Shown here: piece after piece, positions 6,764 through 41,341 of the stretch
How positions within the stretch are numbered: the first letter of the stretch is position 1
How the letters are laid out: every line of letters begins with the position of its first letter
Assembly: GCA_040754625.1 (NCBI GenBank)
Contig: JBFMCF010000054.1
Span: forward strand, 548 to 64,547
Direction of reading: 5' to 3'
DNA from: a bacterium
GTDB lineage: Bacteria; JACRDZ01; JAQUKH01
Length of the DNA stretch: 64,000 nt
Position numbers and translations under genes: made by a program
The notes under the pieces: model-generated
Databases searched by the model: none
What the model was told of the DNA's origin: nothing
The model's input: only the letters and a program-made list of their open reading frames with translations

Positions 6764-9700
6764 TTACTTTCCTTCGATAATAATTTTATCCAGCGGAGTA
6801 TAAGCGACTATTTCCGGAGAATACATCAATTCAACCTTTGAGGAAGGAACAATAAACTCTCCCGCGCAAACCGCCCTGGCATAATAACTGTATTCATAGG
6901 GGCCCTGCCATATATCGTTTTTAAATACAAGCACCCGGTCATTCCTTATTTCAAAATAATTGGGGACAAAATTATAAAAACCGCCCGGATTCCAGTAATA
7001 CCAGTAATACTCTTCTTTATTATAATTTGACCCGGCCGGCACCGGTTCCTCTGTTTTTATGGCGCTGTTTATCGCCACAAATCCGGCAGGAAAAGGGTCA
7101 TCAATGGCAATGTATTGATAATGGCCCCCGGCCTCTATTTTAATTTTTACCTTGACTATATCCCCTACCCTGATTTTATTTTTACCGCTTGTGCTTTCGA
7201 TATCCTTTGAAATTCTAAAACCGTTCGAATAACCTTTTTCGCCGTAATCCACTCTTGGAAAATTTATTTCCACTTTATACATTAATGATTCCCTGGAATC
7301 GGAAAATAATGTAAAAGAAGGATTGTCCATAAAATCCCGCGGGTCAAGCTCCAGGGAATAGTTTTTTAGAGGGTCAAATTGGAATTTCCATTCTTTGCCT
7401 TGAGGATTTTTAACACCGAAATTTACAAGCCCGCTGGCAAAATTCAGGCCCTTGAAATACTCTCCCAGGGCCGCCAAAGCCCATCCCGTGTCAGTGGTGG
7501 TCCTCCATATTCCCTGCTTATCAATATTACCTATCAATTCCAATGCCAGATAATTTTTGATTTCATTGTCTGAAACAATATTAACACACGCTATTAACGC
7601 CAAAGCCCTGCCTATATGCCTGCTGTAATAATGCCCGTAATATTCAGAATAACCCGCGGGGGAATTTAAAACATCCAGCAATTCATTTTGCAGTGTTTCC
7701 TTCGGCACAAAACTGGAAGCGCCCGCGGCAGCGATCAAAATAATCCGGTTTTCTTTAGGCTCTCTTTCCTTATCTTTTGAAACAGTTTCAAAAGTATTTT
7801 TATCCAGCCTGCCGTTTAAGGCAAGAAGATACGAAGCAAGGATTTTAAACGAACTGTCGCTGTTTGTCCCGTTTATTTCGCTCCTTAGATAATTTAATGA
7901 TTTATCAAACAATGAAGAAGGGACATCAAATCCTCCAAGCCTGGCCCTGGTTAAAGCGTTCACCGCATAAATTGAACCCCATGGACTCGGCCTCCTATCG
8001 CCCGGCCAGTATCCAAAACCTCCTGAATCAGTCTGCATACTGAGAATCCTCTCAACACCCGCCTTTAAAAATTTATCTGTCTCTTCTGCGGAAATATCCG
8101 GGACAAGGCCCTGTAATATCAGGTTCCTGAGCGCCGCCAGGGGGAAAACCCCGGAACTGGTCTGTTCAATACATCCATAGGGATATCTTAAAAGATATTT
8201 TAACCCGGGTGAGAGCTTGAAAAAAGGCGATCCTGAAACAGTCAAAACGCATTTAATTTCATCCTCGTTTAAATCCCGCCACTTTATTGATTCGGTCCCT
8301 TCAGGAAATGTATAAATAATTTCCTTCGAACCGGAAAAATTCCCGAATAAAACGTCTTTCCCGCGTATATACCCTGAATTTACAGGGACCTTAACCTCAA
8401 CTGCATCTGATTTTCCGTCAAAACTGCCGCTAAAAGTTACGGTAGAAAATCCTGCTTTTTCCGCCTTTCCTTTTACGGGAATAAGGCTCCTGTCATATGA
8501 GTTCAAAGGATAATTGCTCTTTTCATCCGCGGCTGACAACGCGAGGTTCCCATCCGGCCTTAAATCTATATTGACGGTCCCGCTGCCTTCGGTTTTATTA
8601 AAAGCCGACAATAGAAACAAAAAAGTATCGCCTTTTGTCAAAAATCTCGGGAGCCCCGGTTCAAGGTAGAAATCCCTGGTAACCAATAATTTTCTTTCAA
8701 CCGATTCAAACCGGCTTCCCTTATCGCAGGCAACAACATAAACACGGTATGAAGTTATAGTGTCCGGGCATTTAAAACGTATTGACGCATTGCCGTTTTC
8801 ATCAGTTAAAACAGCCGGGTTAAAATAGGCAACCGGCCTGAAATCTTTCCTCATTATGGGAGTTGACACTTCTATCCCTTCGTCCCCGCCGCCGCCCCCG
8901 GTCAACGGCAAATTAGACAATTCCGAAAACGGAGTCTGCCCTAAAAGAAACGGAGTGAAATCATAGGTAAAAACAGAAAGGGGATAAACAAAACGGATTA
9001 AATCATTCAGGCGGGGCGTTCCATACCTGGTTAAGGCGAGGACACTTTCATCAACAACACCAACAGCCAATTCACTTACAAAACCTTTATTTTTTTCATC
9101 CAGAACCTTAATATTAAGTTCTACTTCACTCCCGGGCAGGGCTTTAAGTTCCCTGTCTTTCTCATTAATGGCAACCTTTATTTTATTATATTGTTTTTTT
9201 ACTTCGACATTAACATACCCGAAAGCCACAGACGGCATTTCCTCATCGTATTGATAGCTGTAGTTTGGAAAATCACCCCTCGGGACCATTCCCGTCAATG
9301 AAATATAAACGTTTGGATAATAATCTTCTTTTACCGGCACCTTAATCTCGGGTGAACCAGGCGATACCTGGACAAGTTTATAATCTAAAATATCCCCGCG
9401 TTCAACCGTCATTAAGTAAGTTGACAATTTCTTTTTAGAATTCACCATTATTTTTATATCTTCATTTTCCGTGTAATATTTTTTTTCAGGTATTAAATTT
9501 ACCTTTTCATATACCGCATTCCGGGATGTTTCCTCTTCCGAATAATCATAGTAATAATATCCTTCAACTTCATAAATTGTGCTCGAAGTATAAATTTTGC
9601 CGTCATTTTCATAACTAAAACTCAAAAGATATTTCCCGCCCCAGTTAAAATCAAAATCAAAAATCGCCTCGCCGTCCGCGATATTGATAAAACTGGAATA

Positions 9701-32566: not shown

Positions 32567-32887
32567 TTATTTATTCTGGCGGTTAGTAATTTTTTCAATT
32601 TCTGCTTCTTTAACTTTAACAAGAGCTTCCAATTTTTTTATATCCTCGCATAATTTAATAATTTCATCATCTTTAATTTTATGATATCTATATACTTTTT
32701 TCCCAATCAGGTTAAAATTTCCGTCCATTTTGTGTTTCAGATTTATTATATCCAGTTTTAATTTTCCCGTATGATAAAAATTTACCCCCTCTTCTTTTCC
32801 CTTCTTCGCAAGCCCGACTACCGTCTCGCCGAGCTTTCCCAGGTTCCTCTTTGCATCTTCAAATATATCATCTTTTTTGTCCGGCAT
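32567..32887 (-). CDS. hypothetical coiled-coil protein
   Basis: 106-aa ORF between aroE and comEC. No recognisable family. Confidence 0.35.
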   Translation of the reverse strand: MPDKKDDIFEDAKRNLGKLGETVVGLAKKGKEEGVNFYHTGKLKLDIINLKHKMDGNFNLIGKKVYRYHKIKDDEIIKLCEDIKKLEALVKVKEAEIEKITNRQNK

Positions 32888-34391
32888 AAAATCCCTTCCT
32901 GTTTATATATAAAAGTATAATAATATAATAGCACAAAATAAAAAATAAACCAGCACTTTGTATATGAAAATTCGAATAAGGAAGCTGCGCGAAAAAAAGA
33001 ACGATTTTCTCCAGTGTTATAAGTAAAAACCAGTTTGTGTCCGCCAATATTTTTACAAGAAAAGAAATTTTTGAAAAAATGACCATTGAAATACCCAGAT
33101 ACAAAATAATACCTACAAGCGGGACGACAAAAATATTCGCTATTACCGATATTAAACTGACCTGCTGAAAATAAAAAGCGCCTACAGGCCACACTCCGAC
33201 CTGAATTGCCAGAGAAAGTAAGAAAAGCTCTTTAGCGCTGTGAGAAAATTTACCCATATAATTATCAGGGAAATTCATGTTTATCCTTTTTAGATCTTCC
33301 ATTTTCCCCTTCTCTTCTTTATTTATTTTTTTTATTTGGATTTTTTCAAGCTCCGGATATATCAATATCATGGATAAAACGCAAATAAAAGAAAGCTGAA
33401 AACTGATCGAAAAAAGGGCCAGCGGGTTGAACAATAAAATAATCAAAGCGGCCAGAGATAAACTGTTTAAAACATCGTTCTCCCGCTCCAGGATGTATCC
33501 AAAAAAAATGATGGTTAATGTAATGGCCGAACGGACCACAGGAGGATTCATTCCTGTAGCCAGGGAATAAAACCAAATCATTAAAATACTTGGAATAACC
33601 GCTATTTTTCTAGGTAATCTCAATATACCCACTAAGATCATGAAACTTATTGTTCCTATCAGGCCGACATTCATTCCCGATACCGCAAGGATGTGCACGG
33701 TTCCCGTATCCCTGAATATCTTCTGAACCCCTTCAGGAATAGTCTGATCGCCGCCCAGAACAATCCCGCTGATCAAAACAGACTCCATCCTAGGGAGATA
33801 ATAAAAATATAAATTTTGAATATATTTTTTGAAAGAAATACTTGATTTTTTTATGCTATTTCCTTTACCCTCTCCGATTTTCTCTACCTTTGAACCGCCC
33901 GTATTGGAAACCGCGTTAATATCCTCGCTTAAAAGATAAAAAGGCGGTTCTTCCAGTGCTCCTTTGAATTTAACAATATCGTTATAGGAAAATATTCGCC
34001 CGCCATAGGCCCTGAGCCGAATAAAACCTTTTATTTCTTCGTCGTTAATATTTTTCAGTGATAAATCATAATCCGTCCATTTGGGATATATTTTAGGCTC
34101 ATCCGCGATCTTCCCGGTAATTTCCACCTCGTTTCCGATAAATCTTTTAAGATTTTCGGACTTGGGGCTTTGGATTGAGTTTAAAGTAAGAATAAAACCA
34201 GAGGATAAAATAGCCAGGCTCAGAAAGATATTACAAATTATCTCTTTTTGCTTAATAAAGAAAAAAACCGAAAAAAGAAAAGAAACAATTAGAAATAGGA
34301 AAATTTGATAAAACGGCAGATAAAAATAACGCCCCAGAATAATACCAAAAATAAAAATGCTCAGAACTTTAAGGCATGGTTGTTTCGTCAT
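32868..34391 (-). CDS. comEC: ComEC/Rec2-family DNA internalisation channel protein (no metallo-beta-lactamase domain)
   Basis: 507 aa, polytopic, with a ...HILAVSGMNVGLIG... competence motif. Confidence 0.8.
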   Translation of the reverse strand: MTKQPCLKVLSIFIFGIILGRYFYLPFYQIFLFLIVSFLFSVFFFIKQKEIICNIFLSLAILSSGFILTLNSIQSPKSENLKRFIGNEVEITGKIADEPKIYPKWTDYDLSLKNINDEEIKGFIRLRAYGGRIFSYNDIVKFKGALEEPPFYLLSEDINAVSNTGGSKVEKIGEGKGNSIKKSSISFKKYIQNLYFYYLPRMESVLISGIVLGGDQTIPEGVQKIFRDTGTVHILAVSGMNVGLIGTISFMILVGILRLPRKIAVIPSILMIWFYSLATGMNPPVVRSAITLTIIFFGYILERENDVLNSLSLAALIILLFNPLALFSISFQLSFICVLSMILIYPELEKIQIKKINKEEKGKMEDLKRINMNFPDNYMGKFSHSAKELFLLSLAIQVGVWPVGAFYFQQVSLISVIANIFVVPLVGIILYLGISMVIFSKISFLVKILADTNWFLLITLEKIVLFFAQLPYSNFHIQSAGLFFILCYYIIILLYINRKGFYAGQKR

Positions 34392-34399
34392 TTGACAAA

Positions 34400-34636
34400 T
34401 TAATCCAAATCAGCCACTTTTGTAACTTGCCTGTATGTTATATCTTTGAATTCATTAAAATGCGCGTATCCGCACTTAATTTTTCTTTTTTCGCTGACTT
34501 TCAATTCCTGCCCTTCCGACTTTGTTTCCGCGACAAAGTAAATCGTTTTCTCATTCTTTTTGACTAAAGCCCAGTCCGGGTTATAATCTCCGATAGGTGT
34601 TTTAATTTTAAACCAGAATGGAAGTTTAAAATAAAA
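34400..34636 (-). pseudogene. C-terminal PD-ExK nuclease segment of the Type III Res-like gene, in frame with 34637..37024 but separated from it by a TAA
   Basis: Same-frame translation directly after the TAA at 34637-34639 gives FYFKLPFWFKIKTPIGDYNPDWALVKKNEKTIYFVAETKSEGQELKVSEKRKIKCGYAHFNEFKDITYRQVTKVADLD*. This has a Res-type PD...E-x-K motif. There is no start codon of its own. Confidence 0.6.
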
Positions 34637-37024
34637 TTAAATATCGTCCCTGTTTTCACATTCCTTCGCGAATTCGTACTCCACATTGGAATCGAGCGGC
34701 ATAAGCGCGCTATAAATGGTTTTACCCTGGTTGGATATATTAAAAGTCAGGCCGTTCACATGGATATCATATTCTTCAAACAACCGCATTTCATACTCCC
34801 TGTTCCCTATTTTTTCATATTTGATACCGTCAATCATTAGCCCGGAAAGAACATCTTTGACGGCTGTAACAGTGTTATCGAGAAAAAGCTGCGGATTAAT
34901 GAACACATCGTTTATTCTGCCTGAGTCTTTTAGTATTTCCAGAATTGTCGCCCGCGTGAGTTCCGTGCGTTCCTGTATATAAAAAAGAATATCGGGAATT
35001 TGAAATATGCTGTCAATTGAAGTTGTATAAGAAGCTCTTATTTCAGCAATAATGCCGGATTCGTCGAATTCCAAAGCCGTTTTTGTGGTTTTGATTACGG
35101 CTTTTTTAATCAAAGGCATATTCCGCACTGCTTCTGCGGCTTTTTGTATCAGATCAAAGGTCTGGTATTCCACTTTGTAATTTGTCTGATATTTTATTTT
35201 ATCCCAGATTTGTTTAAATTTCTCATCCAGCTCAAAACCTTTGCGATACCTGACTGTTTTTCTTTTTTCCTTGTTCTTAATCCTGCCCGCGAAGGATACC
35301 CCGCAATCCTCTTCGATTTCTGTCTGAAGCTGTTTGGCAAACTCCTCATACGATTCATTGGCGATAACAGTCAATCTGTTCACACCGGGATCCTGGACAC
35401 GATTCCCTTCCTGATTTACGGAAAGCCTCAGGCCTCGCCCGATTTCCTGTCTTTTTTTAAGCTCGGATTTTGTTTCATTTAGCGTGCATATCTGAAACAC
35501 ATTCGGATTATCCCATCCCTCCCGCAACGCCGAATGGCTGAAAATAAAGCGGAGCGGCTCATTGCTGTCAAGAAGCTGTTCCTTGTTTTTCATTATCAGC
35601 TTAAAGGTATCGTCATCATCCAGGGTATTGCCTTTCGTGTCTTTCCATTTTCCTTTTTTATCCTTCGAAAAATAACCATTATGGACCTCTTCCGCTTTAA
35701 ATGGAAGTAACCCTTTATATGCCGATTTTTCTGAAATTTCATCAAATATTTTTTCGAACCATAACGCGAATTTACCTTTAACCGCGTTCCCGGCGGCATC
35801 ATAACTTCGATAATTCGCCACCCTGTCGATAAAAAACAACGACAAAACTTTTATCCCTTTATCTTTTAGTTTTCTCTCCTTTAAAAAATGCTCTTCCACC
35901 GCCTTTCCTATCTGTATTTTCATTACCTCATCGGAAAATCCGCCGAACGTATTGCCGATAAATAAGTTTTCGCCGTTTGAAAGCTCAATAAATCCCTCCG
36001 CGGCATCTATACCGTTAATAATGTATCCATTTTTGTATATTTCCCGTTTGCCGGATAACTCATATAAATCATCGCCGACTCTTGCGGTGACTGACTTTCT
36101 TTTTACCCCGTCTTTTGTATTAATATCTATTTTTATTTTTGCCGAGGTGCTGGTTTTGGCAGTATTTACCTTTTCGAGACAAATAAAACCCCCGTTAAAA
36201 TCATTTTCTGTGACAACGGAATCCACCTCAATTTGTTTCACGAGCCCGAGATCATACGCCTTGACCGGATCGAGACTATAAACCATGTTGTAGCGATTTG
36301 TATGCGTGGCGGAATAACGCAGGGTACACAGGGGATTCAAATTTCCCACCGCTTTTTTCCTGATATCAGTCTCCATGTTTTGCGGTTCATCGACAATAAC
36401 AATCGGCATTGTTGCCTGGATGAATTCAACAGGTTTTTTCCCTGTAAGCTTATCGTTGGGTTTATTGATTATATTTTCGTCTTTGGCAAAAGAATCAATA
36501 TTGATGACCAATATCTGAATATTATTGCTGACGGCAAAATTTCTCAGATTTGAGACCCGTTTTGAATCGTATATCTGAAAATTCACGGGTATCTTATCGT
36601 AAAGGTTCTGGAAATGATCAAATGTGATTTCAAGATTTTTAAGGACACCCTCGCGAATGGCAACGGATGGGACAACTATAACGAATTTTTTAAAACCATA
36701 CTTTTTATTAAGTTCGTAAATCGTGCGCAGATACACATAAGTTTTGCCCGTCCCCGTTTCCATCTCAACGGAAAAATTCAATCCGTCCAATTTCTCGGTT
36801 ATGGCAATTTCATTTAACCTTTGTATATCCCTTAAATTTTTGAAAATCTGTTCTTCGCTGATAGAAAGCCTGTTGCCAATGCCATCTTCGTTCAAAAACA
36901 AACTTTCATTTTGAAATGAAAATCCGAAATCACCCTGATTTAACGGCTGGCCCTCGAATATATTGACAATGGAGTTTATGGCATCGTGCTGGTATTGCTG
37001 GTTTGGGTCGAAATGAAGTTTCAT
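34637..37024 (-). CDS. Type III restriction enzyme Res-subunit-like SF2 helicase (795 aa up to an in-frame TAA)
   Basis: N-terminus MKLHFDPNQQYQHDAINSIV... and motif I ...METGTGKTY..., DEPQN (DEAH-like) and helicase C motifs are typical of EcoP15I-type Res. There is no mod gene in the operon. Confidence 0.8.
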   Translation of the reverse strand: MKLHFDPNQQYQHDAINSIVNIFEGQPLNQGDFGFSFQNESLFLNEDGIGNRLSISEEQIFKNLRDIQRLNEIAITEKLDGLNFSVEMETGTGKTYVYLRTIYELNKKYGFKKFVIVVPSVAIREGVLKNLEITFDHFQNLYDKIPVNFQIYDSKRVSNLRNFAVSNNIQILVINIDSFAKDENIINKPNDKLTGKKPVEFIQATMPIVIVDEPQNMETDIRKKAVGNLNPLCTLRYSATHTNRYNMVYSLDPVKAYDLGLVKQIEVDSVVTENDFNGGFICLEKVNTAKTSTSAKIKIDINTKDGVKRKSVTARVGDDLYELSGKREIYKNGYIINGIDAAEGFIELSNGENLFIGNTFGGFSDEVMKIQIGKAVEEHFLKERKLKDKGIKVLSLFFIDRVANYRSYDAAGNAVKGKFALWFEKIFDEISEKSAYKGLLPFKAEEVHNGYFSKDKKGKWKDTKGNTLDDDDTFKLIMKNKEQLLDSNEPLRFIFSHSALREGWDNPNVFQICTLNETKSELKKRQEIGRGLRLSVNQEGNRVQDPGVNRLTVIANESYEEFAKQLQTEIEEDCGVSFAGRIKNKEKRKTVRYRKGFELDEKFKQIWDKIKYQTNYKVEYQTFDLIQKAAEAVRNMPLIKKAVIKTTKTALEFDESGIIAEIRASYTTSIDSIFQIPDILFYIQERTELTRATILEILKDSGRINDVFINPQLFLDNTVTAVKDVLSGLMIDGIKYEKIGNREYEMRLFEEYDIHVNGLTFNISNQGKTIYSALMPLDSNVEYEFAKECENRDDI

Positions 37025-37254
37025 TAATTGTCTTTTAATTTTTGGATTGATTTTTCTTCAAAATCAGTATCATCTTCAATTATCGAATCATCGCATACAT
37101 CATAATCAATAGCATGAATGATTTCACAAATCGTCTTTCCTTTTTTCAATAATACCTTTGAAAGTTCCGGGAAACGTTTTTTTATGTCACTACAAAATTC
37201 TTCGAGTTCTAAGCAAAATCTTTTATCAAAATAATCCCAATGTCCGCCACTCAT
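37024..37254 (-). CDS. hypothetical small acidic protein (76 aa)
   Basis: Its stop overlaps the Res start (TAATG). Acidic C-terminus. No family recognised. Confidence 0.5.
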   Translation of the reverse strand: MSGGHWDYFDKRFCLELEEFCSDIKKRFPELSKVLLKKGKTICEIIHAIDYDVCDDSIIEDDTDFEEKSIQKLKDN

Positions 37255-37297
37255 TATAAATTAATCTCCTCTATTCAAATTCTATATAAATCAAGCA

Positions 37298-38047
37298 TTA
37301 AGCAACTAGTCTTAATTTTCTTTCTTCTTTCCTCGTCCAAGGGAATTCAATAATACCGTATTCAGCAATAGCCTGGGATACTTCCGATGGAATTTCTTTT
37401 TCAAGGTCATTAAGAATCATTATCCCTTCATTATTGCGGGCAAGTTTTGTATCTTCAAAAGCAAAAAGATGCGCCATAATATTCTGTTTTTTAGGGCTAT
37501 TTACGACCTTTAAAATTCTCTCGCCGGCTTTATCCGAAGGTGGTATTAAAATATCAAATTTATGCTGGAAAGTGCTTTTTCCCTGCAATATAATATTTCG
37601 TGAAAATCGAACGGAATTCTGCATCAGAAAATTAACAACATCCTCAAGAAAGAAAGCCTCCACTTTCGGTTCAGCCAAAACAAATAAATCATCTACTGAT
37701 AAAACAGCTTGTATTAAATTATGTTTTTTAACAGGGAATGTCGAGGGTGTCGCAAAGGTCATAAGTTCATTGCCTTTTACCATAACTCCAAATCCATTTA
37801 ATATGATTTCCAGCTCTTTCTTCCTAGAAGGAGAACTTAAATCAAGTCCCTCCATTTCTAAATTTGATATAGTTTCGCCGTCATCCGTCATGATTATTTT
37901 ATCATTCGCGTCCTTTTTTAAATAAATCTGTATATAATCATTTATATGATTAACAAATGGTGTGGTAATTTCATAATAACCATTAATTTCTTTATAGGTG
38001 ATTTTTTGTTTTAACCAGTCAATATAACTCTGAATAAGTTCTTTCAT
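37298..38047 (-). CDS. hypothetical protein, DUF1828/DUF1829-like
   Basis: 249 aa. N-terminal ...YIDWLKQKITYKEINGYYEITTPFVNHINDYIQIYL... and C-terminal ...VRFSRNIILQGKSTFQHKFDILIPP... resemble the DUF1828/DUF1829 pair, recalled from memory rather than searched. ATGA overlap with the upstream ORF. Confidence 0.5.
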   Translation of the reverse strand: MKELIQSYIDWLKQKITYKEINGYYEITTPFVNHINDYIQIYLKKDANDKIIMTDDGETISNLEMEGLDLSSPSRKKELEIILNGFGVMVKGNELMTFATPSTFPVKKHNLIQAVLSVDDLFVLAEPKVEAFFLEDVVNFLMQNSVRFSRNIILQGKSTFQHKFDILIPPSDKAGERILKVVNSPKKQNIMAHLFAFEDTKLARNNEGIMILNDLEKEIPSEVSQAIAEYGIIEFPWTRKEERKLRLVA

Positions 38048-38532
38048 ATAAATAATGTCTCCTTAACTTTGGGCATAGAAATTACATTGCAATATTCTAA
38101 AAATTTATTCATTATTTCATAAAAACTTTGGTTTGTAATATTTAAAAATAGTTCTATAGGCACAGCCCATTTATGATTAAATCCTTCCACATATATGTGA
38201 ATATGAGGGCAAACTACAACAACGCCATTGTATGATTGTAAAATATCAAGAGGAGGATTTTCAACTTCCGGATTAGGATGTGAGGGGCCTTCTATATCTA
38301 ATCGCCTTAAAACAAACGACTTTCTTGCTCTGTTTTGATAGGTTATTTTTTCCGCTTTGATACTTGCTCTCGTTATATCAAACAAAAATAATTCTCTTTT
38401 ATCTTTTGATGTAAATGGCAAAACTAATTTCTCGCCCTGGCAGGGAAAATTAAATTCCTTGTTTCCCTCTTCAGGAATTTTTTCCATCGCGAAGAAAAAA
38501 TCTGCGTCCTTTTGGCTTAAAAAATGTGGCAT
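38044..38532 (-). CDS. hypothetical protein (about 162 aa)
   Basis: Start set at MPHFLSQKD..., which is preceded by GAGGAG. The ORF track extends to 38565. No family recognised. Confidence 0.5.
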   Translation of the reverse strand: MPHFLSQKDADFFFAMEKIPEEGNKEFNFPCQGEKLVLPFTSKDKRELFLFDITRASIKAEKITYQNRARKSFVLRRLDIEGPSHPNPEVENPPLDILQSYNGVVVVCPHIHIYVEGFNHKWAVPIELFLNITNQSFYEIMNKFLEYCNVISMPKVKETLFI

Positions 38533-38827
38533 CTTTATTTTCTCCTCACACCGTCTTAAACTCAATCCCCGCGTCCTTCATCTGCAACGCGGTATTGGTT
38601 TTTAATTGATCATTATTCTTAAATAATCGGTCTAATGTGATAACCTTATGAGGTTTTTTAGAAATTACATTCTTAATGATTTTTTCATTAATTTTTTCCA
38701 AAACGAGGGCAATTTTCCATTTATTCCAGTTCGTTTCTTACTCATAATCGCAAATTCTACAGTAAAATCATATAAAAATCAAACTAAGTTTTTACAAAAT
38801 TTTTACATGATCCGTTTCCTAAGAATA

Positions 38828-39202
38828 TTATTTGGTTTCTTTGTCATTTACGGTGATTTGCTCTCTTATTTTACTGAACTTTTTCTCCCCGATACCGCGG
38901 ACTTTTTTAATATCTTCGATAACCTTAAATCCCCCGGACTTTTCACGGTACTTTATAATTTCCGCGGCGATCTTCGGCCCTATTCCCGGAAGCGTGTCCA
39001 GCTCCCCGATTGAGGCGGTGTTAATATTTATTTTTTTGTTTATTGTCCTTACGGCGCCATGATTTGCCAGCCTTTCTGTTTTAACGGATTCGAAAGAAGT
39101 GAGGGCCCCTCTGCCCCTCGCCCACTGGACACCCAGGCCCAGAATAATCGCGCCGGTTAAAAATAGAATAATGATCTTTTCCTGTTTGGTAAAATAAAAC
39201 AT
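38828..39202 (-). CDS. comEA: ComEA-like DNA receptor (TM + helix-hairpin-helix)
   Basis: 124 aa. ...INTASIGELDTLPGIGPKIAAEIIKYRE... HhH motifs. Confidence 0.8.
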   Translation of the reverse strand: MFYFTKQEKIIILFLTGAIILGLGVQWARGRGALTSFESVKTERLANHGAVRTINKKININTASIGELDTLPGIGPKIAAEIIKYREKSGGFKVIEDIKKVRGIGEKKFSKIREQITVNDKETK

Positions 39203-40768: not shown

Positions 40769-41341
40769 ATGGATTTATTGAGCCTCGGCCGTTCAAAATT
40801 AAGAGAAGCTATATTCAGGCTTTATTTTGTCGCTCCTGAGAGTGAATATTATCTTCGCCAACTGGAGAAAATTCTGAAAGCAGCCGTCGGCAATATCCGC
40901 CGGGAACTGCTTAAACTTAAAAAAACAGGCCTTTTTTTGTCCCGTAAGAAAGGACACAAGGATTTCTATTATCTAAACAAGAAATATCCCCTCTTTAATG
41001 AATTAAAACAGATTGTAAACAAAACAATCGGACTTGTCGACAAAATCAAAAAAGAAATAAATAAAATACCCGGTATCGAGACAGCTTTTATATACGGCCC
41101 GGTTGCCAGGGGTGAAAATAATCTTAAAGCTGAAGTTTTTATTTTTATCATAGGACAGGCAGACAAAAAAAAATTATCAATACTCATCCGCAAATTGGAA
41201 AAAATTTTAAAACGAAAAATAAATACATTTGTTACGGGCAGAAAAAAATTTATTTTTAAAAAAGACACAAAAGATTTTTTTATCTTCGACCTTTTAAAAC
41301 GGCCGAAAATTTTTCTCATCGGGGACGCGAAACGGTTATAA
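40769..41341 (+). CDS. wHTH plus degenerate nucleotidyltransferase-fold protein
   Basis: 190 aa. An N-terminal wHTH-like region and a ...FIYGPVARGE... minimal NTase-like motif lacking the DxD. Confidence 0.5.
   Translation: MDLLSLGRSKLREAIFRLYFVAPESEYYLRQLEKILKAAVGNIRRELLKLKKTGLFLSRKKGHKDFYYLNKKYPLFNELKQIVNKTIGLVDKIKKEINKIPGIETAFIYGPVARGENNLKAEVFIFIIGQADKKKLSILIRKLEKILKRKINTFVTGRKKFIFKKDTKDFFIFDLLKRPKIFLIGDAKRL

Follow-up and report, generated by a model that had tools for sequence, protein, structure and literature searches.

The 64,000-nt stretch analysed here (contig JBFMCF010000054.1; hereafter 'the window') carries a gene cassette between the competence genes comEA and comEC. This cassette is very probably a decaying Type III R-M (restriction-modification) island of the arrangement mod - cargo - res, which was inserted between overlapping comEA and comEC genes and in which an intact cargo, the phage defence candidate PDC-M24, has been kept. 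All coordinates are positions in the window, and labels such as L001 denote compared loci from relatives or other genomes. The cassette genes lie on the minus strand and, read from 39202 to 32868, the open reading frames (ORFs) follow the order comEA, A, B, a 76-amino-acid (aa) ORF, res and comEC. The features that define the island are as follows:

38828..39202, minus strand: comEA, intact, upstream island boundary; 124 aa; Pfam HHH_3 82 bits, TIGR00426 (NCBIfam)
38833..38849, minus strand: left copy of a 17-bp imperfect direct repeat, AAATGACAAAGAAACCA, aligning to the single copy in L008
38546..38725 (codons 38549-38725), minus strand: 3' remnant of a Type III mod gene, last 59 codons and TGA stop, located by tblastn with relatives' Mods
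38044..38532, minus strand: cargo A, intact, DUF6978 protein, PDC-M24A; 162 aa; PF22398 118 bits, PDLC04538 156 bits, E 2.6e-46
37298..38047, minus strand: cargo B, intact, DUF1828+DUF1829 protein, PDC-M24B; 249 aa; PDLC04539 288 bits, E 1.6e-86
37024..37254, minus strand: cargo C, 76-aa acidic protein of an unannotated small-protein family
34400..37024, minus strand: Type III res pseudogene; 795 codons, TAA at 34637-34639, 78 further in-frame codons, stop at 34400-34402
34377..34393, minus strand: right-hand copy of the 17-bp repeat (imperfect, direct), AAATGACGAAACAACCA; it overlaps the start codon of comEC
32868..34391, minus strand: comEC, intact, downstream island boundary; 507 aa; Pfam Competence 206 bits and DUF4131

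A first-pass annotation of this DNA had described four coupled, same-strand ORFs between comEA and comEC. These are present (162 or 173 aa, 249 aa, 76 aa and a 795-aa ResIII protein), as are the two overlaps it reported, ATGA at 38047-38044 joining A and B and TAATG at 37026-37022 joining the 76-aa ORF and res. Its further statement that the operon holds no methyltransferase gene is correct as regards an intact mod, but a 59-codon mod remnant lies at 38546-38725 on the same strand. This remnant matches the extreme C-terminus of the Mods of L005 and L003 at 59% identity (tblastn E 6e-15 and 5e-17, respectively), shares 83% identity with the C-terminus of the L009 Mod and also matches Mod C-termini in 18 further loci. 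It ends 13 nt upstream of A, with the mod stop, a GGAGA site and the ATG arranged as in the relatives, where a full-length mod occupies the remnant's position. The catalytic and target-recognition parts of the gene are gone, with approximately 570 codons missing, and tblastn with the relatives' Mods revealed no other Mod-like sequence in the 64-kb window. With mod reduced to its last 59 codons, neither methylation nor target recognition would be left. An internal rather than 5' deletion, with the mod N-terminus preserved upstream of the remnant, was considered and dropped because the short ORF found there ('MSKKRTGINGK...') is unlike the conserved 'M(N/T)GESL(N/D)I' N-termini of these Mods.

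By its sequence, the Res protein is an ordinary Type III Res. It matches the PADLOC profile REase_III (PDLC03647) with 916 bits and Pfam ResIII and DEAD with 57 and 37 bits, respectively; the superfamily 2 (SF2) ATPase-translocase domain (ResIII/DEAD) is present, with motifs I, II, III and VI readable as GTGKT, VDEPQN, SAT and QEIGRGLR. It is 88% identical to the intact, 878-aa Res of L007, 87% identical to the frameshifted Res of L009 and, along its entire length, 61-63% identical to Res proteins that come with a Mod. The gene appears to have been inactivated by a GAA to TAA nonsense mutation: the TAA stands in place of the Glu codon of a conserved 'RDDIEFYFKLP' segment, a codon that reads GAA in each of the five homologues compared. 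Downstream of this stop lies the catalytic D...ExK ('DYNPDW...AETK') of the RE_endonuc domain, and RE_endonuc (PF19778) is detectable on the read-through sequence only (115 bits). Thus, the earlier description of a Type III Res-like SF2 helicase with a C-terminal PD-ExK motif holds for the helicase, whereas the ORF itself (34637..37024) excludes the catalytic residues.

A Type III Res acts only in complex with Mod, as in EcoP1I and EcoP15I, and in textbook Type III operons mod and res are adjacent. The dependence of Res on Mod for target recognition has been reviewed (PMC12707154). Since Res needs Mod and both genes are broken, the restriction system would have been inactivated twice over. The window resembles Type III R-M of the EcoP1I/EcoP15I type (MTase_III PDLC03634 and REase_III PDLC03647) in the SF2 motifs of Res, in its C-terminal RE_endonuc PD-ExK domain (on read-through) and in the position of mod upstream of res, the relatives carrying a full Mod (N6_N4_Mtase). 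It differs in that mod is down to 59 codons, res is stopped ahead of the catalytic residues and one to three unrelated cargo genes lie between mod and res. Unique substitutions number 52 in the window res, versus 34 in L007 and 32 in L009, but this count is confounded by phylogeny, because L007 and L009 are mutually closest (91% identical), and it was not taken as a sign of relaxed selection.

Independent decay of the same R-M family was observed in other loci. The Res of L009 carries a frameshift near residue 776 (L009 2000-5753), that of L027 is down to its last 72 codons (8947-9165) and the Mod of L028 is 5'-truncated to residues 473-628 (7081-7515).

Three close relatives of the host were found via ComEC:

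L008: ComEC 78% identical; hflX-comEA-comEC contiguous, comEA overlapping comEC, cassette absent
L007: ComEC 72% identical; intact 878-aa Res (88%) abutting comEC, with a PIN-like gene before Res
L009: ComEC 67% identical; Mod (at least 206 aa), a 162-aa protein, a 261-aa DUF1828 protein, frameshifted Res (87%) and comEC

The expectation that comEA and comEC are normally adjacent is borne out by L008, the closest relative found, which matches the window over the full length of both proteins (ComEA at 72%, ComEC at 78% identity). Both window flanks align to one 17-bp stretch of L008 (4695-4711; blastn), present as a single copy at this empty site, and the two copies that flank the island agree at 14 of 17 positions. 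The G+C content is 0.32-0.33 in the cargo region and 0.40-0.45 in the surroundings. The first-pass annotation had offered two explanations for the location of the cassette. Island insertion into a competence locus gains support from the empty site in L008, the flanking direct repeat and the lower G+C of the cargo. A functional link to competence or incoming DNA does not, as comEA or comEC was near the A-B pair in none of the 80 other loci. Similarly, nothing marks the cassette genes as components of the comE operon, comEA and comEC being contiguous in L008 and neither of the two lying near A-B in the 80 other loci. The 17-bp repeat could be a target-site duplication or an att core, and it could permit precise excision restoring the comEA/comEC overlap. 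The island may be ancestral, with a precise loss in the L008 lineage, or it may have spread among relatives by recombination. A tRNA or non-coding RNA as integration target was rejected, since the 64-kb window contains neither a tRNA gene nor any Rfam family that reaches the gathering threshold.

The comEC ATG begins 8 nt past the read-through stop of res, and comEC is probably now transcribed through the island. As in the comE operon of the Bacillus subtilis type (comEA-comEB-comEC), comEA and comEC of the window are co-oriented, and they are contiguous in L008; unlike in that operon, the intervening genes of the window are non-competence genes that are absent from the L008 empty site, and the window ComEC has no C-terminal metallo-beta-lactamase domain. 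ComEC proteins of the window and its close relatives are approximately 507-517 aa long and share this lack, while the domain is found in many more distant ComEC homologues of approximately 780-810 aa. In L009, comEC has suffered an internal deletion.

The small ORFs had been regarded as undescribed partners of Res. A check with Pfam and PADLOC profiles instead matched two of them, A and B, to the named candidate PDC-M24, one of 145 'phage defence candidates' that Payne et al. (bioRxiv 10.1101/2024.01.29.577857) obtained in a 'guilt-by-embedding' screen of genes lying inside BREX, DISARM and Type I R-M systems. As in the published pair, the window A and B match PDC-M24A (156 bits) and PDC-M24B (288 bits), respectively, and are adjacent, co-oriented and overlapping. 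The difference lies in the host system: the candidate was defined in BREX, DISARM and Type I R-M, whereas the window and 18 related loci have a Type III host system.

Translation of A is likely to start from the ATG at 38532: this start is served by a GGAGA ribosome-binding site, and the product is then 162 aa long, as in the homologues; the TTG at 38565 (173 aa) is an unlikely start. A retains every invariant residue of the family alignment, among which are H85, N87, P88, H110, H112, Y114, E116, K121 and W122, and its AlphaFold model has a predicted local distance difference test (pLDDT) score of 91. A resemblance of this DUF6978 protein to the 'PPHfH' motif of DUF4160 was considered but was unsupported by Pfam even at E<=5. 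The model of B (pLDDT 91) has two domains. The C-terminal domain is predicted to adopt a restriction-endonuclease-like alpha-beta-beta-beta-alpha-beta core fold of the PD-(D/E)xK superfamily, and the N-terminal domain appears chaperone-like in the model. Putative catalytic residues of B are D165, which is invariant, and E176, conserved in 42 of 43 homologues. An exact-sequence look-up of the window protein B returned no record.

A profile scan of GTDB species genomes revealed a relative of B in 544 genomes, and 80 loci were examined. A lies directly upstream of B in approximately 75 of the 80, across many phyla. In the nearest clade (B at least 65% identical; Bacteroidota and Ignavibacteria metagenome-assembled genomes (MAGs)), both Mod and Res of this Type III family flank the pair in 15 of 23 loci, and at least one of them does so in 18; the pair stands alone within the same clade in L001/L002, L016 and L030. 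Among the 57 more distant loci (B at most 56% identical), none has a Mod or Res of this family. Neighbours of these distant copies, taken as family counts only from PADLOC and Pfam scans, are heterogeneous and include Type I S/HsdR, DUF1156/DUF499, PIN, DUF2442, nucleotidyltransferases and housekeeping genes. Relatives of A and B at approximately 30% identity also occur in temperate Firmicutes phages. In prophage Lj965 (L090, NC_005355.1, 2556-3771), a DUF6978 and DUF1828/1829 pair lies in the lysogeny module, flanked by repressor/metalloprotease genes and by superinfection-exclusion (sie)/integrase genes. A-B is a mobile, self-contained two-gene module found in many phyla and in prophage lysogeny modules.

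In the loci compared, the mod-res gap of this Type III family behaves as a hot spot, or slot, for exchangeable defence-type cargo. L005/L006 have the order Mod (628 aa)-DUF6978-DUF1828/1829-309 aa-Res (897 aa), and L003/L004 have Mod-Mrr_cat-DUF6978-DUF1828/1829-Res (880 aa). The slot was compared between the window (37028-38545), L009 (623-1996) and L007 (1-465), and also in L013, L015, L018, L019, L026, L028 and L029. Between the window and L009, the DNA is homologous (approximately 84%) up to the mod stop codon (38545) and again from 3 nt ahead of the res ATG (37027) onwards; the intervening genes of the two are unrelated at the tblastn level. The L009 slot holds a distant A/B-like pair (PDC-M24B 74 bits; PHROG matches) and the L007 slot a PIN-like gene. 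Other occupants of the slot are:

L018: Piwi-domain protein (Argonaute, pAgo)
L013: AAA_15/AAA_21 ATPase and DUF1016_N
L019: Schlafen/AlbA_2 protein
L026: MBL and ThiF/Prok-JAB
L028: YhcG PDDEXK nuclease
L015: Bro-N
L003 (L005 weak): Mrr_cat

The mod 3' end (encoding ...LKTNT.LQM.DA.I.FKT.*) recurs as a 56-88-bp copy at a cargo boundary in four loci, and this duplication may be the footprint of cassette insertion or recombination:

L015: 6560-6616 and 7458-7514
L018: 7288-7376 and 8758-8846
L026: 7447-7512 and 8764-8829
L027: 7454-7529 and 5101-5176

The third cargo gene, the 76-aa ORF, was matched by no model of Pfam, PADLOC, NCBIfam or PHROG, and tblastn gave no phage match either. It belongs to a family of 113 cluster representatives at E<=1e-3, with a net charge of about -7, invariant residues S2, G3, G4, D23, D50 and D56, and the pattern MSGGHWDY...RFP.L...H.LD.D.SGD..I.DD..FE. 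A homologue that is 62% identical occupies the same position (B-x-Res) in L024, one of the 80 loci.

The history and action of the island may be pictured as follows. Insertion between overlapping comEA and comEC probably took place in an ancestor of this lineage or in one of its relatives. Restriction is very probably dead here, with mod down to 59 codons and res nonsense-mutated ahead of the catalytic D...ExK, and the intact genes are then the cargo of the mod-res gap, that is, the coupled A-B pair and the 76-aa acidic protein. B may be a latent PD-(D/E)xK DNA nuclease, as its model predicts, and its chaperone-like N-terminal domain may bind a partner or a trigger. A, with a seemingly novel fold and a conserved His/Glu cluster, may form a stoichiometric complex with B that keeps B silent. 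Release of B would follow upon infection or loss of the element, in the style of a toxin-antitoxin (TA) or abortive-infection system.

Several points weigh against this account of a dead R-M island with a nuclease cargo. The basic residue of B stands at +4 and not +2 (E176-x3-K180), which is non-canonical, and K180 is replaced by Arg in 11 of 43 homologues; for this reason the catalytic competence of B is plausible but unproven. The model of A has no recognisable fold and no significant or informative structural neighbour, and experimental evidence of defence or toxicity by A-B was not found in the searched literature. With respect to the R-M genes, the 100 nt between comEA and the mod remnant match nothing, leaving the left end of the deletion unmapped; the TAA in res may stem from an error in the sequencing or assembly of this MAG; and a Type III mod located elsewhere in the genome may possibly act in trans.

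A broader reading joins the slot and the cargo. In it, the mod-res gap would be a dedicated, exchangeable defence-cargo slot, in which cassettes are swapped precisely from mod stop to res start with the duplicated mod 3' ends as recombination footprints, and PDC-M24 would be a new nuclease-based anti-phage module, autonomous or acting as a Type III guardian, that is outliving its R-M system here. This combination is tentative and less likely than not.

It is fairly unlikely that A-B is a plain addiction (TA) module that stabilises its carrier element and has no anti-phage role. Two overlapping, widely mobile genes with a predicted nuclease, classic TA genes near the distant copies (PIN, DUF2442 and nucleotidyltransferases) and survival within a decaying island would all agree with such a role. 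The contexts of the pair are, however, typical of defence: it is embedded in R-M, BREX and DISARM (PADLOC screen), shares its slot with pAgo and ABC-ATPase genes and lies beside a prophage sie gene. Moreover, TA and abortive-infection roles are not mutually exclusive.

It is rather improbable that A-B is an R-M guardian comparable to PrrC, held inactive by Mod/Res and triggered when a phage inhibits restriction, and non-functional or decaying in the window. PrrC, whose effector gene is nested in the Type IC EcoprrI locus, provides the precedent (PMC12707154). The pair lies between or beside Mod and Res of one Type III family in 18 of the 23 loci of the window-B clade (at least 65% identity), with operon-tight spacing in several of them (4-6 nt from the Mod stop to the start of A, and 6-10 nt from B to Res), and the likeness to EcoprrI extends to an effector gene inside an R-M operon. 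However, PrrC is one protein, a tRNA anticodon nuclease that also has an ATPase domain, whereas the window has a two-protein module with a PD-(D/E)xK fold, and no coupling of A-B to R-M was found, the pair mostly occurring without Mod/Res of this Type III family. It occurs alone in L001/L002, L016 and L030 of the same clade, in all 57 distant loci and in prophages; the slot, with the many unrelated defence genes that it also holds, looks like a passive site for cargo; and A and B are intact here despite a dead R-M system.

The chance that the R-M system is in fact functional, with the TAA and the missing mod as MAG assembly or sequencing artefacts or with a mod in trans, is very small. The contig is metagenome-assembled and a single-base error could make a TAA, but the absence of approximately 570 mod codons cannot be put down to a base error, collinearity with the relatives holds at both junctions, the same family has decayed independently in L009, L027 and L028, and no mod lies elsewhere within the 64-kb window.

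Finally, there is next to nothing left of the proposal that a single new defence system is made up of A, B, the 76-aa ORF and a Res-like helicase-nuclease independent of Mod, with Res as motor and effector, or an undescribed Mod-less module as the first-pass annotation put it: although the genes share a strand, tight packing and overlaps and A and B are intact beside Res, a mod remnant is present here and a full mod lies upstream in relatives, Res is a typical protein (61-63% identical to Mod-associated Res, 916 bits on REase_III) that is truncated ahead of its catalytic residues, A and B are the catalogued PDC-M24, and the four genes fail to stay together from locus to locus, A-B being together mostly without Res, the 76-aa ORF recurring in 1 of 80 loci and the slot of close relatives with an 88%-identical Res holding different cargo.

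Other features of the region are minor. A promoter-like TTGATT-17-TAGAAT on the minus strand (38754..38782), between the comEA stop and the mod remnant, is weak evidence from a consensus scan (9 of 12 matches), and promoter and terminator scans of the region gave counts no higher than the shuffled expectation. Divergent from hflX, a 190-aa ORF on the plus strand (40769-41341) has a weak, sub-threshold match to a Polbeta nucleotidyltransferase (18 bits), and L008 has a 192-aa ORF at the equivalent place.

The value of the window is mainly corrective, in that an apparent Mod-less Res with unknown partners turns out to be a pseudogenised Type III R-M system, very probably, with an already catalogued candidate. 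It is therefore not to be pursued as a new four-gene system. The remaining interest lies in the behaviour of the Type III cargo slot and in PDC-M24 as a nuclease module, more than in this particular locus. Structural prediction makes B of PDC-M24 testable as a PD-(D/E)xK nuclease with a chaperone-like domain. 'Guilt-by-embedding' has been published for Hma, BREX, DISARM and Type I systems. It extends as well to a Type III family, whose slot holds pAgo, ABC-ATPase, Schlafen-like, ThiF/JAB and YhcG/Mrr nuclease genes as well as PDC-M24. The locus itself would illustrate that a competence operon can be split by a defence island, which afterwards falls into decay with its cargo still in place.

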